Shown piece after piece: positions 4,341 to 63,967 of a DNA stretch of 64,000 nucleotides. The stretch's first letter is position 1. Every line of letters begins with the position of its first letter. The notes below the pieces were generated by a model that made no database searches, was not told where the DNA came from, and saw nothing but the letters and a program-made list of their open reading frames with translations. This DNA is from Deltaproteobacteria bacterium (GTDB lineage Bacteria > Myxococcota_A > UBA9160 > UBA6930), in NCBI GenBank assembly GCA_029261815.1, contig JAJDAQ010000069.1:12340-76339 (forward strand), in the 5' to 3' direction. The position numbers and the translations under genes are program-made.

Positions 4341-4865
4341 CTAGAGGAGAGCGCCTTGCGCGGGGTGTCGGTGCTCCATGGCGAGCAGCTTCTCCTTCAT
4401 CGGGAGGCCGCCTCCATAGCCACCCAGCTTGCCGCCGGCGGCTACGACGCGGTGGCACGGAATCACGAGCGAGAGCGGATTCGCTCCGTTCGCGGTTCCG
4501 ACCGCGCGCACGGCCTTCGGCTGCCCGATGGCGTGTGCCACGTCGGTATAGGTTCTCGTCTCGCCATAGCCGATCTGCTGAAGCGCCTCGTAGACCTTGT
4601 GCTGGAACGACGTGGCCCGAAGATCCAGCGTGAGATCGAACGCCTCGCGCTTGCCTTCGAGGAACTCGGTGATCTGCAAGATCGCCGCACGATTGGGCTC
4701 GTAGCCGTCGCGCACGTCGTCGCCAGTCGCGTGGGTATGCAACCAACCGGTGAGCCCGCGACCTTGCGCTCGCGGCAGCTGCACATACGCCAGTCCGCTC
4801 TCCGTCGAAGCGAGTTTCATCGCACCGAAGGCGGTATCAAAGCTGGCGAGAAAGACGGACCCCAT
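4341..4865 (-). CDS. ogt: methylated-DNA--protein-cysteine methyltransferase
   Basis: Active-site motif IPCHRVV plus LGGYGGGLPMKEKLL at the C-terminus. 174 aa. Confidence 0.9.
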   Translation of the reverse strand: MGSVFLASFDTAFGAMKLASTESGLAYVQLPRAQGRGLTGWLHTHATGDDVRDGYEPNRAAILQITEFLEGKREAFDLTLDLRATSFQHKVYEALQQIGYGETRTYTDVAHAIGQPKAVRAVGTANGANPLSLVIPCHRVVAAGGKLGGYGGGLPMKEKLLAMEHRHPAQGALL

Positions 4866-4947
4866 CGAGCCGAGATCATACCACCGTGTGACGATTCGAT
4901 GGGGACGCGGTGGTCACCCAGTGTTTCACCGATGGCTCGGACCGTCC

Positions 4948-21624: not shown

Positions 21625-22017
21625 CTAACTTTCCGCTGCAGCCCGTTCCTTCTCGACTTCGGCGATCACGCTTTCCACCTCGCCAACCAGGCCCGCCACC
21701 CTCGGGTAGCCCGCGTACTGGGCCATGTGGATCAAGATCTCGCGAGCCTGCTCCGCGTCGAGTTCGCCGTTCTTCATCGCCGCCTTGAGTTGGATACGGA
21801 ACGTCATGCCCTCGCCCAGGGCGATGATCGCACCGAGCATGAGCAAACGACGGTCCCGCACGGGCAAGATGTCGGTCCGTGTCCAGACTTCGGCGAAGAG
21901 CTGTTCGAGCATGATGTCGGAGAACGCCATCGCGCCTCGTGGCGCCGTCACCACGTCCCCGGCGTACACCTCTTTGAGCATCTCCTGTCCACGCTCCCAG
22001 CGATCCTTATCGGCCAT
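21625..22017 (-). CDS. carboxymuconolactone decarboxylase (CMD) family protein
   Basis: 130 aa. LLMLGAIIALG ... ILIHMAQYAGYP is typical of the PcaC-like gamma-CMD fold. No CxxC motif. Confidence 0.8.
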   Translation of the reverse strand: MADKDRWERGQEMLKEVYAGDVVTAPRGAMAFSDIMLEQLFAEVWTRTDILPVRDRRLLMLGAIIALGEGMTFRIQLKAAMKNGELDAEQAREILIHMAQYAGYPRVAGLVGEVESVIAEVEKERAAAES

Positions 22018-22128
22018 CTGAAGGCTCCTCCTATTGGAACTCCGGAGAATACACCGCCGCCCTGCCGCTCCAACTCCAGAGGTCTATGTTAGTTCCTGGC
22101 ACAACGCACCTCTGCAGCGCCGCCCAGG

Positions 22129-30082: not shown

Positions 30083-30106
30083 CGCCTCTGCCCTCAACTG
30101 AGGATC

Positions 30107-30126
30107 ATCCCCCACGACTGGGGGAT
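30107..30126 (+). promoter_or_regulatory. hairpin occluding the top6B Shine-Dalgarno
   Basis: ATCCCCCA-CGAC-TGGGGGAT: an 8-bp perfect stem with a 4-nt loop. The 3' arm (GGGGGA) is the only SD-like sequence and ends 4 nt before ATG 30131. Confidence 0.5.
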
Positions 30127-30130
30127 TGAG

Positions 30131-31966
30131 ATGAGCAAGCAGGGGAGCTTCACCTTCGAGGGCGAAGCCGGAGGCCAGGCGATGTCGGCCGCACCCGCCA
30201 AGGGCGGTGGCGCGGCGCGTGGCAAGAGCCGTGGCAGCGCGAAGAAAGCGCCGGCCAAGAAGACGACGACGACGGCGGCGAAGTCGGCGCACAAAGCTGC
30301 GAAGTCGGCGCACGAAGCTGCGAAGTCGGCGCGCAAAGCCGCGAAGTCCACACGCAAAGCGCCGAAGAGCGGCGCCGCGACTCGCAAGCCGAAGGAACGC
30401 ACCCGCTCCGATGCCACCCAGATGGCGACGAAGCAGCGGGACATTTCGGTCTCCGAGTTCTTCGCGAAGAACCGTCACCTCCTCGGGTTCGACAATCCGG
30501 CCAAGGCCCTCCTCACGACGGTGAAGGAAGGCGTCGACAACTCGCTCGACGCCTGTGAAGAAGCCGGCATCCTGCCCGACATTCGCGTCGAGATCCATCA
30601 GCAGGACGAGACGCGCTTCCGTGTCGTGATCGAAGACAACGGCCCCGGCATCGTGAAGGCCCAGGTGCCGAAGATCTTCGGTCGGCTGCTGTACGGCTCG
30701 AAATTCCACCGGTTGCGGCAGAGCCGGGGACAGCAGGGCATCGGGATCAGCGCAGCCGGCATGTATGGCCTGCTGACCACGGGCAAGCCGGTGAAGATCA
30801 TCACGCGAATCGGCAAGAAGAAGCCGGCGCAGCTATTCGAACTGGTGATCGATACCAAGACGAACGAGCCCAAGGTCACGCGCGAAGAGGTGGTCGACGA
30901 CTGGGCTCCGGAACACGGAACCCGCGTCGAGATCGAGATGGAGGGCGGTTACCGCGGCGGCCAGCACTCGGTCGATGCCTACGTACGGCAGATCTCGCTC
31001 GCGAATCCGCACGCGCGACTCGTCTACCTGCCTCCGAACCCGACCAAGACGAACGGCGCGATCGAATTCCCGCGCGTCACCGACGAACTCCCGCCGGAGA
31101 CCGCCGAGATCAAGCCGCACCCCTATGGCGTGGAGCTGGGCGTCCTGATGCAGATGTTCCGCGACACCCGCGCACGAAACGTCAAAGGCTGCTTGCAGTC
31201 CGACTTCGTACGCGTGTCCGCCGCCGTGGCCGAAGACATCTGCAAACGCGCCGGCGTCAAGCCCGGAAAGAAGGGTCCCGACGTTAGTCGGGACGAAGCC
31301 GAGAGCATCCACAAGGCGATCCTCAACACGAAGCTGATGGCACCGCCGACAGACTGCATCGCTCCCATTGGCGAGGATCTCCTGCTCGCGGCCCTGAAGG
31401 CCGAGGTAAGAGCCGACTTCTATGCGTCGGTGACACGTCGGCCCACCGTGTATCGCGGCAACCCGTTCATGATCGAAGCTGCGATCGCCTACGGGGGAGA
31501 TCTCTCGGGCGACGACTCAGCCCTCGTCTACCGCTTCGCCAACCGCGTGCCGCTGCAATACCAGCAGGGCGCGTGTGCGGTCACGAAGGCAGTCACGGGG
31601 ACGGACTGGAAGTCGTACCAGATGATGCAACCCCGTGGCGCCTTGCCTGTGGGCCCGATGATCATCATGGTGCACATCGCTTCGGTGTGGGTGCCCTTCA
31701 CTTCCGAGAGCAAGGAAGCGGTTGCCCACTATCCGGAGATCATCAAGGAGATGCGGCTCGCTCTACAGGAATGTGGACGTCGCGTCGCGACCCACATCCG
31801 AAAGCAGAAGCGCGAAGCCGACGAGGCCAAGAAGCGCGCCTACATCGAGAAGTACATCCCCCAGGTCGCCGTTGGCCTGCAGGAGATCCTGGGCTTCTCG
31901 GAGAAAGAACGCGACAAGGTCGTCACGAACCTCACCGAGGTTCTGGAAAAGAGCAGGAAGCTGTAA
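30131..31966 (+). CDS. top6B: DNA topoisomerase VI subunit B with about 97-aa Lys/Ala-rich N-terminal extension
   Basis: GHKL Bergerat-fold motifs: N-box [14 protein letters not shown]1 [10 protein letters not shown]2 [15 protein letters not shown]. The canonical N-terminus [18 protein letters not shown] begins around residue 105. An alternative start ATG 30422 would remove the tail. Confidence 0.93.
30278..30361 (+). repeat. 21-bp tandem repeat x4 inside the top6B 5' region (heptad AKSAHKA / AKSAHEA / AKSARKA / AKSTRKA)
   Basis: gcgaagtcggcgcacaaagct / gcgaagtcggcgcacgaagct / gcgaagtcggcgcgcaaagcc / gcgaagtccacacgcaaagcg, read directly from the sequence. Confidence 0.9.
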
Positions 31967-33225
31967 TGCCGGCACGCAAGAAGACGACGAAGGCGGCGCC
32001 CCGCAAAGCGGCCAAGAAGACGTCGAAGAAGACCGCGCGCAAGAAGACGACTTCAGCGCGAAAGCGCGCAACCAACGACGCCGAAGCCGAAAGGCGCGCG
32101 GGCGAAGTCGCCAAGAACAACGAGCGAATGAACGCTGTCACGGTCAAGGCGATCGAAAAAGCCGCGACCGGGGTGCACACGCGAATTCTCAAGAAGGGGA
32201 AGCCCGACCTCTCGTTCCCGATCCGCTCGCTCAAGAACGTGAGTTATTCGGACAAGCGTGGCTACTTCGAGATCGGAAAACAGAAGAAGACGCGAACCCT
32301 GACGGTCAACACCGTGAAGAACTTCGCACAAACGCTGCGGATGATGGGACTTTCGAAGGAGCTGGTGGAGAGCAACGACTTCGCCACCAAGCGAGACGCC
32401 TACTACCAGAGCAAGAATTGGGACGATGCGCGCTTCAGCGAACAGAGCGAGAGCGACGCTGTCATGGACGATATCGAAGCCATGTTCTCGGTCGACAGCG
32501 TGTCTCGCGAGCAGCTCCGCTTCATTCCGGACGAGGCCTCGAACGGCTCGGTGGCCGGCGAGCTGACGGTGCTCGACCCCGACCGCGACACCGGCGAGAT
32601 CATCCGCATCGACTGCACCGGCTTCGGCTCGGGCGCGTACGCGATCCCGTCCTCCGTCGAACAGCTCTCGTTCGAAACCGACGCTTCCTTCATCCTGTGC
32701 GTCGAAACAGGCGGCATCTTCCAGCGACTCCAGAGCCACAAGTTCTGGCAGAGTTCGAACTGCATCCTGATCTCGATGGGCGGCGTGCCTTCCCGCGCGT
32801 GCCGGCGCTTCGTTCGAAAGCTGTCGGATGAGGCCAAGATTCCGGTCTACGCCTTCGTCGATTGCGACCCCTACGGCATCTCGAACATCTACCGAACGCT
32901 CAAGGTCGGCTCGGGCAACGCGGCGCACCTTTCAAGATTCTTCTGTGTGCCCCAGGCGCAGTACCTGGGTGTCACGCCACAGGACATCGTGGACTATGAA
33001 CTGCCGACTCATCCATTGCAGGATGTCGACATCAAGCGTGCCAAGGATGCCCTGAAGAACGACCCGTTCTTCCGGGCACACAAGCCCTGGCAGAAGGCCC
33101 TGAATGATCTCTTGAAGATGGGCGTGCGTGCCGAACAGCAGGCACTGGCGAAGTGGGGCCTCAACTACGTGATCGAGGAATACCTGCCCGCCAAACTCGA
33201 CAACCCGGCCCAGTTCCTCCCGTAG
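31966..33225 (+). CDS. top6A: DNA topoisomerase VI subunit A (Spo11 family) with about 35-aa basic N-terminal tail
   Basis: The start ATG overlaps the top6B stop (TAATG). Catalytic-Tyr region ATKRDAYYQ. Toprim Glu [13 protein letters not shown]. Dx[14 protein letters not shown]. Tail [35 protein letters not shown]. Confidence 0.93.
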
Positions 33226-62138: not shown

Positions 62139-62876
62139 CTAGCGCTGCCGTCGGAGCTCGCGGAAGCCGGCCGTACACGCAGCCGTGAGCAGGAGCAGCG
62201 CTGCCACGCGGGGCTCGGGAGTGACGATATAGGAAGAGACGTCGCCCGAAACGCGTGCGATCGAGAAGTTCGGCGGACCACTCGGCGATGACACCGAGCA
62301 CGTGAACTGAACGATGGGGAAGGCGCTCAAGCTCGTCGGCGTGAAGAATGCCACCGATGTGAGGGTCTGGGCCGACGGGTCGACGAAGCTCAGTGAGCAA
62401 GCCACGGCGGCGGATCCGATCACAGGAGCCGGCACGCTGGTGGCGTACGGAATCTGCCAGAAGTCGATGGGCCCATTCGGGTCGGGAAAGTCCAAGGGAT
62501 TCAGGTTGTTCTGAATCTGGATGAGCGGCAGCGGGAAGGTGCCCCCGGCCGGCTGGAGAACGAGATCACCGAGGCTCCCCGTAAGGCGGAGCGTCTCTGG
62601 GCCGAGCACACCAATGGGCAACCCGAAGATCGGCCCAATATCGCCAGGCCACACGTAGGTCCCGCCTGCGGCAAAGTCCAAGCCCGCGAGCTGCCCCACG
62701 AAGAACGCCGTTGGATCGTACTCGGCACTTCCAGAGAAAGGTGTTCCGAGCCCGGGCAGAAGGCCCTGCGGGTCGTTCGCGGTGTCGATGACGCCGGAGA
62801 ACTCCACCCGAAGGGCATGGGCCGGAAGAGCGAGCAGGGAGATCAACAGGAGCGGAAACAGCAGGCGGGCGCGCAT
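62139..62876 (-). CDS. PEP-CTERM-tailed secreted hypothetical protein
   Basis: Start ATG 62876. Signal peptide MRARLLFPLLLISLLALPAHA. C-terminus IVTPEPRVAALLLLTAACTAGFRELRRQR. Confidence 0.7.
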   Translation of the reverse strand: MRARLLFPLLLISLLALPAHALRVEFSGVIDTANDPQGLLPGLGTPFSGSAEYDPTAFFVGQLAGLDFAAGGTYVWPGDIGPIFGLPIGVLGPETLRLTGSLGDLVLQPAGGTFPLPLIQIQNNLNPLDFPDPNGPIDFWQIPYATSVPAPVIGSAAVACSLSFVDPSAQTLTSVAFFTPTSLSAFPIVQFTCSVSSPSGPPNFSIARVSGDVSSYIVTPEPRVAALLLLTAACTAGFRELRRQR

Positions 62877-62977
62877 TCGGACCTCGGCCCGTTCCCAGAC
62901 CTTCAGGGTCCCACGGATCGACCGACGGGGCAACGGCGCCTGTTATTCTATGTGTGTCCCGAAACTGGAGGTCCGCC

Positions 62978-63460
62978 ATGGCAAGCGAAGCCGATGCCCC
63001 GATCCCGATGACGACGTTGCTGCCCGACTTTTTCGAGCGCTTCTTCGCGTTCTTCAAGCCGGGACATACCGGGGGCGTGGTGCCCGCGCGCATCAAGGAA
63101 CTGGCGCGGCTCAAAATCGCGGCGCTCAATGGCTGCGACACCTGACTGTTCGCCCGGTACGCGTCGGCGACGCGTCAAGGACTGAACGAAGAGACGGTGG
63201 CCCAGATTCACAAGCCGGAAGCCGAGCGGGTCTTGGAACCGCGCGAGGCATTGGCGGTGCGGTTTGCCGAGAAGCTGGCGCTCGACTTCCGCGAAGTCGA
63301 TGCCGCCTTCAAGGCCGAACTTCGAGAGCACTTCGACGATGCCGAGATCTCGGAGCTTGGACTGATGATCGGCCAGTACATGGCGCTGGGGCGCATGCTC
63401 GTGATCGCGGGCGGAGACAAGATGGCGTGCGAGATCTACGACCCCGAGGCGTCCTACTAG
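62978..63460 (+). CDS. AhpD-like / carboxymuconolactone decarboxylase family protein with in-frame TGA (candidate selenocysteine, CxxU); alternatively a pseudogene
   Basis: ATG 62978 lies 7-8 nt after GGAGG. ...ELARLKIAALNGCDT[TGA 63143..63145]LFARYASATRQGLNEETVAQI... continues in the same frame to 63460. The TGA falls where the second Cys of the family's CxxC motif lies. Confidence 0.6.
63159..63175 (+). promoter_or_regulatory. candidate bacterial SECIS hairpin
   Basis: ACGCGTC-GGC-GACGCGT: a perfect 7-bp stem starting 13 nt after the TGA. The apical loop begins 20 nt after the TGA and starts with G. Confidence 0.45.
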
Positions 63461-63481
63461 GACTCCAGCCGGACTCCGTCG

Positions 63482-63967
63482 CTAGTTCGGCCAAGCACCC
63501 TCGTGCCTGAGCAGCCAACGTTTGCGTTCGACGCCACCGGCGTAACCGGCCAGCGACCCGTCCGCCGCGATCACGCGATGGCACGGCACGATGATCGCGA
63601 GCGGGTTGTGGTGGTTCGCCTGGCCGATCGCACGCGCGGCACGAGGCCGGCCGGCCGCACGCGCGAGTTCGCGATACGAAACCGTGGTCCCGTACGGAAT
63701 GCGGCGCAGCGCCCTCCATACTTCACACTGGAAGTCCGTCCCAGACGGCATCAGCGTCAGACCCTCCCAGGGGTCCTTCTCTCCGGCGAAGTACGCGTCC
63801 AGTGCCCGCTCCGCCGCATCGAGGTGCGGCACCGCCTGCACATCCGCGCGCGGGGCCGGAAGCCTTGGGCAACCCTGAAGCAGGCAGTGCGTCAGCCCTT
63901 CGGCTCCAGCCGCCAGGACGAGGGCTCCGATCGGGGTTTCGATCGACCGTACATTGGATTGGCTCAT
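63482..63967 (-). CDS. ogt: methylated-DNA--protein-cysteine methyltransferase (second copy)
   Basis: Active-site motif VPCHRVIAADGSLAGYAGG. 161 aa. Confidence 0.9.
   Translation of the reverse strand: MSQSNVRSIETPIGALVLAAGAEGLTHCLLQGCPRLPAPRADVQAVPHLDAAERALDAYFAGEKDPWEGLTLMPSGTDFQCEVWRALRRIPYGTTVSYRELARAAGRPRAARAIGQANHHNPLAIIVPCHRVIAADGSLAGYAGGVERKRWLLRHEGAWPN

Follow-up and report, generated by a model that had tools for sequence, protein, structure and literature searches.

An AhpD-like gene interrupted by an in-frame TGA

We analysed a 64,000-nucleotide stretch of DNA, here called the window, from an uncultured bacterium labelled Deltaproteobacteria (assembly GCA_029261815.1, contig JAJDAQ010000069.1), and describe a gene near its end that very probably encodes a selenoprotein of the AhpD-like/CMD family. 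The asparaginyl-tRNA synthetase (AsnRS) encoded in the window is 72–78% identical to proteins of metagenome-assembled genomes (MAGs) labelled Deltaproteobacteria, Myxococcales or Myxococcota. The list of open reading frames (ORFs) holds the gene as two separate entries on the forward strand, 62954..63145 and 63197..63460, which share one frame. Translated from 62978 to 63460, the sequence runs through 160 codons and meets only one internal stop (...LKIAALNGCDT*LFARY..., in the context IAALNGCDT*LFARYASATRQG). An initial annotation of the window had proposed that one gene is divided into two same-frame ORFs by TGA 63143..63145 and that read-through yields a 160-residue AhpD/CMD-family protein. 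The coordinates and the translation agree with both proposals, and the read-through product matched the Pfam CMD profile (PF02627) at 37.6 bits against a gathering score of 23 bits (E = 2e-9, profile positions 1–83 of 84).

The same annotation had called the start well supported, citing GGAGG 7–8 nt ahead of the ATG; the motif is there, at a spacing of 6 nt, a trivial difference. It had also described the codon bias as unchanged past the TGA, and we found G+C contents at third and second codon positions (GC3 and GC2) of 0.83 and 0.38 across 63146..63460, a coding signal 3′ of the TGA. Public gene calls (the 143-kb NCBI contig and the assembly of run SRR15505512) cut the gene into pieces of 87 and 55 residues. 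TGA is the ordinary stop codon of 17 of the 49 predicted genes in the window, so the genetic code has undergone no global reassignment. Neither a sigma-70-like promoter nor an intrinsic terminator was detected within 62750..63600. The features of the locus, with selenocysteine abbreviated as Sec and the selenocysteine insertion sequence as SECIS, are as follows.

62978..63460, + strand: predicted coding sequence of an AhpD-like/CMD-family selenoprotein of 160 residues, from ATG 62978 through the putative Sec-UGA at 63143 to the true stop TAG at 63458..63460 (from translation)
62967..62971, + strand: GGAGG, a Shine–Dalgarno-like motif 6 nt 5′ of ATG 62978 (read from the sequence)
63098..63100, + strand: codon of Glu41, invariant in the alignment and predicted to be the Glu of the AhpD E-x11-C-x-x-C pattern, 11 residues separating it from Cys53
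63134..63145, + strand: predicted CxxU redox motif, Cys53-Asp54-Thr55-Sec56, aligned with CxxC; Cys53 and the TGA are invariant among 78 distinct orthologous genes
63143..63145, + strand: UGA codon predicted to encode Sec; TGA in the window and in 83 of 83 other Sec-form loci, TGC in five Cys-form orthologues
63155..63157, + strand: codon of Arg60, four residues past Sec, invariant in Sec and Cys forms; His in canonical AhpD and in PA0269
63159..63175, + strand: putative bacterial SECIS core, a 7-bp stem ACGCGUC/GACGCGU with the apical loop GGC at 63166..63168
63149..63190, + strand: candidate lower stem, TTCG (63149..63152) with CGAA (63187..63190), pairable in 72 of 72 sequences and enclosing the core hairpin

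The TGA column in orthologues and Cys forms

A genome scan returned two close loci in Myxococcota MAGs (L001 and L002), and of the 344 relatives found by a metagenome scan we retained the best 80 (L016–L095). Orthologues were 66–84% identical along their full length. TGA occupied the column of codon 56 in the window and in 83 loci (L001, L002, L016–L095 and L097), and TAA or TAG was never found there. Among the 82 scanned loci (L001, L002 and L016–L095), none had a Cys codon at the last position of C-D-T-[x]. A protein search recovered full-length relatives of 150–185 residues bearing LNGCN[LT]C-LFARY, together with many fragments that stop exactly at ...LNxCDT or start just beyond it. Fragments bounded at this point indicate that the in-frame stop is common to many relatives.

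Selection and synonymous-site statistics were taken over 78 distinct Sec-form genes. By the Nei–Gojobori method, the median ratio of nonsynonymous to synonymous substitution (dN/dS) was 0.149 for codons 16–55 and 0.185 for codons 57–148, and dS was approximately 0.9–1.0 on either side of the TGA. Equal purifying selection on the two sides argues that the 104 downstream codons are translated in frame, and rules out that the TGA is a true stop or the gene a pseudogene.

Five distinct Cys-form orthologues, from Myxococcota MAGs and metagenomes (L098, L099, L103, L104 and L105), carried TGC at the Sec column, and farther CMD relatives have CxxC there. The INGCAYC segment of PA0269, a solved AhpD-like protein, aligns onto the CxxU motif. 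The initial annotation had placed the TGA at the second Cys of the family CxxC motif and had called for such an alignment; the LNGCN[LT]C-LFARY of the Cys orthologues and the INGCAYC of PA0269 bear it out. We regard the Cys/Sec correspondence at column 56 as established at the level of aligned sequences.

Database records of these orthologues reflect the split. Most entries for the AhpD-like CxxU orthologues are N- or C-terminal halves, and several database ‘proteins’ among P0014, P0026, P0029, P0030, P0035 and P0037 consist of an unrelated N-terminal sequence fused to one half of the gene. We also noted two distant CMD relatives of approximately 32–33% identity with an in-frame TGA at the same active-site column. 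In a Gaiellaceae MAG (L013:157) it lies in IACDY-TGA-GSQ, and in a Methylomirabilota MAG (L015:3052) it lies in GSAY-TGA-MDI, with Ser at the first-Cys position. Each has its own, differing downstream hairpin at a SECIS-like distance, and the two appear to be independent Sec forms from other phyla.

A hairpin downstream of the TGA resembles a bacterial SECIS

A perfect 7-bp hairpin, ACGCGTC-GGC-GACGCGT, begins 13 nt past the TGA and leaves 20 nt between the UGA and the first loop base, exactly as originally annotated. Its loop starts with G-G above a closing C-G pair, and the minimum free energy (MFE) of the hairpin alone is -9.1 to -9.6 kcal/mol. The published model of the bacterial SECIS (bSECIS) specifies a loop of 3–9 nt with G in the first two loop positions and a stem of 4–16 bp, together with a UGA distance of 16–37 nt and an MFE of -7.5 kcal/mol or below (PMC13188914). 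With its 3-nt loop, 7-bp stem, 20-nt distance and MFE, the hairpin lies within all four constraints, in agreement with the SECIS-like geometry first ascribed to it.

Comparison among the 78 genes showed that the codons forming the hairpin are almost fixed. Synonymous entropy was 0–0.29 bits at codons 61–66 (Y61 A62 S63 A64 T65 R66, encoded as TAC GCG TCG GCG ACG CGT), compared with mostly about 1.0–1.9 bits, and a minimum not below 0.49 bits, at other conserved four- and six-fold codons. Likewise, dS was 0.26 across codons 57–67 versus approximately 1.0 elsewhere. An eighth pair, C19-G37, is added in 12 sequences, and the bottom A-U pair is lost in four. In the orthologue L043 (ACGCGCA-GGC-TGCGCGT), compensatory changes on both strands preserve the stem at two pairs and bring two amino-acid substitutions (YAQAAR). 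The hairpin is missing from all five distinct Cys-form genes, which use other synonymous codons. The Cys-form protein P0012 retains the peptide YASATRQG, and the Cys-form locus L104 (1001–1453) retains the residues Y-A-S-A-T with other codons (TAT, ACC) and a partial hairpin remnant, ATGCGTCGGCGACCCTC. This remnant may be a SECIS that decayed after conversion of Sec to Cys, or a precursor of a SECIS. From these sequence comparisons, we hold that the hairpin is conserved as an RNA structure beyond what coding constraint would impose.

The initial annotation had further suggested that TTCG and CGAA could extend the structure. Both sequences are present where it put them, but no discriminating covariation was found for the stem: among the 72 sequences there were no compensatory changes, and RNAalifold did not predict the pairing. 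All synonymous options at these sites are wobble-compatible, so the pairing says nothing either way. Rfam gave no relevant match, either across the whole window at the gathering level or within 63000..63400 at the E-value level; it apparently has no matching bacterial SECIS family, so this negative carries no weight.

Proposed Sec decoding and alternative explanations

Taken together, the comparisons of sequence make it highly likely that 62978..63460 encodes one AhpD-like selenoprotein, with UGA specifying Sec and the hairpin acting as its SECIS. UGA 63143..63145 would be decoded as Sec and not as a stop, and the mRNA hairpin at 63159..63175 would recruit SelB-GTP-Sec-tRNA(Sec) while the UGA occupies the A site. 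By homology, Sec56 would stand at the nucleophilic second-Cys position of AhpD, with Cys53 as the resolving residue and a transient selenenylsulfide formed between them. The product is most likely a selenol/thiol oxidoreductase by analogy with its relatives; reduction of a peroxiredoxin-type partner, or of small hydroperoxides or disulfides, would be plausible roles.

Several observations weigh against this reading or against its precise chemistry. No tRNA gene, including tRNA-Sec, was found by ARAGORN in the 64-kb window; NCBIfam and Pfam scans of its approximately 50 ORFs found no selA, selB or selD; and none of selA, selB, selD or tRNA-Sec was found in approximately 10 kb past the window end (L101). 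In a window of 65.7% GC, a perfect hairpin with SECIS-like geometry and a stem of 7 bp or longer follows 20 of 1295 TGA triplets (1.5%), and the folding energy of the hairpin downstream of UGA 63143</find><why>c, added summing-up; w</why></edit>
<edit><find>Within that comparison, compensatory covariation is known from L043 alone, in which ACGCGCA-GGC-TGCGCGT keeps the stem with two pairs altered on both strands and two amino-acid substitutions (YAQAAR). One Sec-type locus, L096 (P0001; 777–1259 on a 1.7-kb contig of GCA_044232445.1), has CGA (Arg) at the Sec column with the hairpin intact. This is the only exception among Sec-type loci; CGA is one nucleotide away from TGA, and it is either a very recent T-to-C change or a sequencing error.</find><replace>Within that comparison, compensatory covariation comes from a single sequence, L043. 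In one Sec-type locus, L096 (P0001; 777–1259 of a contig of 1.7 kb from GCA_044232445.1), the hairpin is intact and the Sec column reads CGA (Arg). This is the only exception among Sec-type loci; CGA is one nucleotide away from TGA and stems either from a sequencing error or from a very recent T-to-C change. is no better than that of dinucleotide shuffles (z = -0.13 and -0.58; GC-rich context). The hairpin by itself is therefore weak evidence, and its significance comes from the comparison of orthologues. Within that comparison, compensatory covariation is known from L043 alone, in which ACGCGCA-GGC-TGCGCGT keeps the stem with two pairs altered on both strands and two amino-acid substitutions (YAQAAR). 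One Sec-type locus, L096 (P0001; 777–1259 on a 1.7-kb contig of GCA_044232445.1), has CGA (Arg) at the Sec column with the hairpin intact. This is the only exception among Sec-type loci; CGA is one nucleotide away from TGA, and it is either a very recent T-to-C change or a sequencing error. As for the chemistry, the E-x11-C-x-x-C-x3-H motif of canonical AhpD is not reproduced: the position four residues past the second Cys, that of the proton-relay His of Mycobacterium tuberculosis AhpD, is the invariant Arg60 in both Sec and Cys forms. Moreover, no ahpC or peroxiredoxin gene adjoins the selenoprotein gene.

With regard to the decoding machinery, tRNAs were likewise absent from 45 related loci, and a tblastn search with an Escherichia coli SelD query gave no match in 490 kb of related loci. 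For a genome of several megabases, the lack of sel genes in the window tells us nothing. The old class Deltaproteobacteria is rich in selenoproteins (PMC1794560), and our literature search found no paper specifically on Sec use in Myxococcota.

We considered three other explanations of the interrupted gene. The split source gene calls (55 and 87 residues) and the missing Sec machinery in the window would fit a nonsense mutation, a pseudogene or an assembly error, with no full-length protein made from the locus. Yet 83 independently assembled orthologues share the TGA at a dS of about 1, dN/dS downstream is 0.18, and the codon is always TGA, never TAA or TAG, and always in the catalytic Cys column. 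This degree of conservation effectively refutes the idea on sequence grounds, and we give it almost no credence. The same split calls, and the listing of both pieces as ORFs, could instead reflect two proteins, a 55-residue N-terminal peptide and an 87-residue product re-initiated at GTG 63197. However, codons 57–73, from the TGA to GTG 63197, are highly conserved as in-frame protein, the called C-terminal fragments start at differing positions among orthologues, the CMD domain and AhpD fold cross the junction, and the Cys forms are single proteins of 150 residues. Two separate products are thus extremely unlikely.

A non-Sec route of decoding is very unlikely as well. Here UGA would be read by a near-cognate Trp, Cys or Arg tRNA, or through a lineage-specific reassignment, and the hairpin would only stimulate read-through. 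The lack of Sec genes in the sequence surveyed and the CGA (Arg) codon of L096 would agree with this, as would the Trp that the Joint Genome Institute (JGI) translation of P0002 (L097, 73–573) has at the Sec column, although the DNA there is TGA. Against it, TGA terminates 17 of the 49 predicted window genes, and every Cys form has the redox Cys of CxxC in this column; Sec is the only known UGA-encoded residue that would preserve redox-Cys chemistry. The hairpin conforms to the canonical bSECIS geometry down to the G-G at the start of its loop, and CxxU AhpD-like selenoproteins have been described before (PMC1088965, PMC2398784).

If the gene encodes a selenoprotein as proposed, the main value of the result lies in annotation: a full-length redox enzyme would be restored, and split calls would be corrected in this genome and in dozens of relatives. 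The host, an uncultured Myxococcota-type bacterium, would be flagged as a probable user of Sec. The locus would also offer a clean natural case of a SECIS constraining coding sequence, with six consecutive codons synonymously frozen and close Cys forms as a control.

Family, fold and predicted active site

The AlphaFold model of P0003, a Cys orthologue of 70% identity, is all-helical (pLDDT 81) and places the dyad where a helix begins, and its best Foldseek matches in the PDB were 7xw1, 6k40, 2oyo and PA0269 (2ijc), with TM scores of 0.72–0.74. The model thus predicts the all-helical AhpD/CMD fold. Glu41-x11-Cys53-x-x-Sec56 reproduces the Glu-x11-CxxC spacing of AhpD, and the role of Glu41 is presumably that of its counterpart in M. 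tuberculosis AhpD. That enzyme reduces AhpC with an E-x11-CxxC-x3-H proton relay. It resembles the window protein in its CMD/AhpD fold, its Glu-x11-Cys spacing and its redox dyad at a helix start; the window protein differs in having no adjacent ahpC, Arg for His and a single domain of 160 residues. The closest solved proteins are PA0269 and P. aeruginosa AhpD (2ijc, 2o4d and 7xw1), with the related AhpD-like structures 6k40, 2oyo and 2gmy; the best sequence match, PA0269, reached an E of about 5e-10, with CxxC falling on CxxU; 6k40 is the alkyl hydroperoxide reductase of Deinococcus radiodurans and 7xw1 is the AhpD of P. aeruginosa. These proteins share approximately 22–24% identity with the window protein, have Cys and not Sec, and carry His at +4 (CAYCVNMH in PA0269), unlike the Arg found here.

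Scores against the curated subfamily models were far below their cut-offs. TIGR00777, the AhpD subfamily, gave 14.4 bits against 192 bits; the YciW-related NF053654 gave 44.5 against 310; NF041047, the GSU3128 family (‘distant AhpD homolog’), gave 18.9 against 110; and TIGR01926, peroxidase-related, gave 25.9 against 81.8. NF041238 gave no match at E ≤ 0.1. The protein is therefore not a member of the NF053654, NF041047 or TIGR01926 subfamilies, with which it shares weak homology and the same alternation of Cys and Sec on a CMD fold. PcaC (4-carboxymuconolactone decarboxylase) was rejected as an identity: its model TIGR02425 is absent from the matches of this protein and weakly matches a different ORF, 21628..22083, instead.

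In the window, the gene lies among a secreted hypothetical protein, an aminotransferase and Ogt/Ada genes. Recurrent neighbours elsewhere encode a major facilitator superfamily (MFS) transporter, an APH-like kinase, DUF3127 and DUF3604, in a synteny common to a subset of the Sec loci and the Cys forms. This shared synteny supports orthology, not a specific function, and no redox partner is conserved in the neighbourhood.

Relation to known AhpD-like selenoproteins

The first CxxU AhpD-like selenoproteins, 27 sequences assigned to COG2128, were found in the Sargasso Sea metagenome together with a CMD-domain CxxU family (PMC1088965). In the Global Ocean Sampling (GOS) survey, ‘AhpD-like 1’ (COG2128) was the fourth most abundant family with 299 sequences, and ‘AhpD-like 2’ (pfam02627) had 70 (PMC2398784). 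These surveys of 2005 and 2008 provide the marine metagenomic precedents to which the initial annotation had alluded, and CxxU AhpD-like proteins rank with the most abundant bacterial selenoprotein families known (PMC1088965, PMC2398784). The selenoproteins listed in a review of 2026 include AhpD-like (TIGR01926), CMD-like (PF02627), distant AhpD homolog (NF041047) and AhpD-related (NF041238) proteins (PMC13188914). On the evidence of its sequence, the gene is very probably a genuine, previously unannotated selenoprotein gene of a family known since 2005, and it leaves selenoprotein biology unchanged.

Like the published AhpD-like 1, AhpD-like 2 and CMD selenoproteins, the window protein has a CMD domain and a CxxU motif in which Sec is predicted to take the place of the second Cys, and its gene has a putative SECIS directly downstream inside the coding sequence and abundant metagenomic relatives. 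In contrast to them, its clade has the signature C-D-T-U-L-F-A-R-Y-A-S-A-T-R and occurs in Myxococcota-type genomes, including those from soil and sediment metagenomes. JGI names the orthologues ‘alkylhydroperoxidase family enzyme’, which we take to be the name of COG2128. By name and description, the window protein most plausibly belongs to or adjoins ‘AhpD-like 1’.

It is possible, but on balance we remain doubtful, that the Myxococcota-centred clade forms a distinct subfamily of AhpD-like selenoproteins, marked by E-x11-C-D-T-U-L-F-A-R, by Arg in place of His and by a near-invariant ACGCGUC-GGC-GACGCGU SECIS, and captured by no current curated model. If so, the absence of a curated model would explain why public calls systematically split the gene in two, and the exchange of His for Arg could mean a catalytic arrangement or a substrate unlike that of characterised AhpD proteins.

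Other genes in the window

Among adjacent same-frame ORFs, no further selenoprotein gene was found in the window; the remaining junctions are ordinary gene ends. A second CMD-family ORF, 21628..22083 (- strand), lies 41 kb away and matches Pfam CMD at 35.7 bits, with weak PcaC-like matches. With neither CxxC nor CxxU, it does not qualify as a redox paralogue of the selenoprotein.

The divergent neighbour of the selenoprotein gene, 62139..62933 (- strand), encodes a protein with a signal-peptide-like N terminus and a C-terminal tail (...PEP-RVAALLLLTAACTAGF-RELRRQR) that resembles a PEP-CTERM sorting signal; its product had no match in Pfam or NCBIfam. Two genes for Ogt (methylated-DNA-protein-cysteine methyltransferase) lie in the window, at 4344..4913 (- strand) and 63482..63967 (- strand). 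The Ogt gene that is convergent with the selenoprotein gene overlaps a gene for an Ada/AlkA-type regulator-glycosylase just past the window end (L101:8469–10004).

A topoisomerase VI operon occupies 30083..33225 (+ strand). Subunit B is encoded at 30083..31963 (NF003218, 690 bits), and the ORF ending at 33225, for subunit A or a Spo11-like protein, has Toprim, TP6A_N and Topo_VI_alpha domains. Topoisomerase VI is chiefly an archaeal and plant enzyme, and the operon stands here in an apparently Myxococcota-type bacterial genome.

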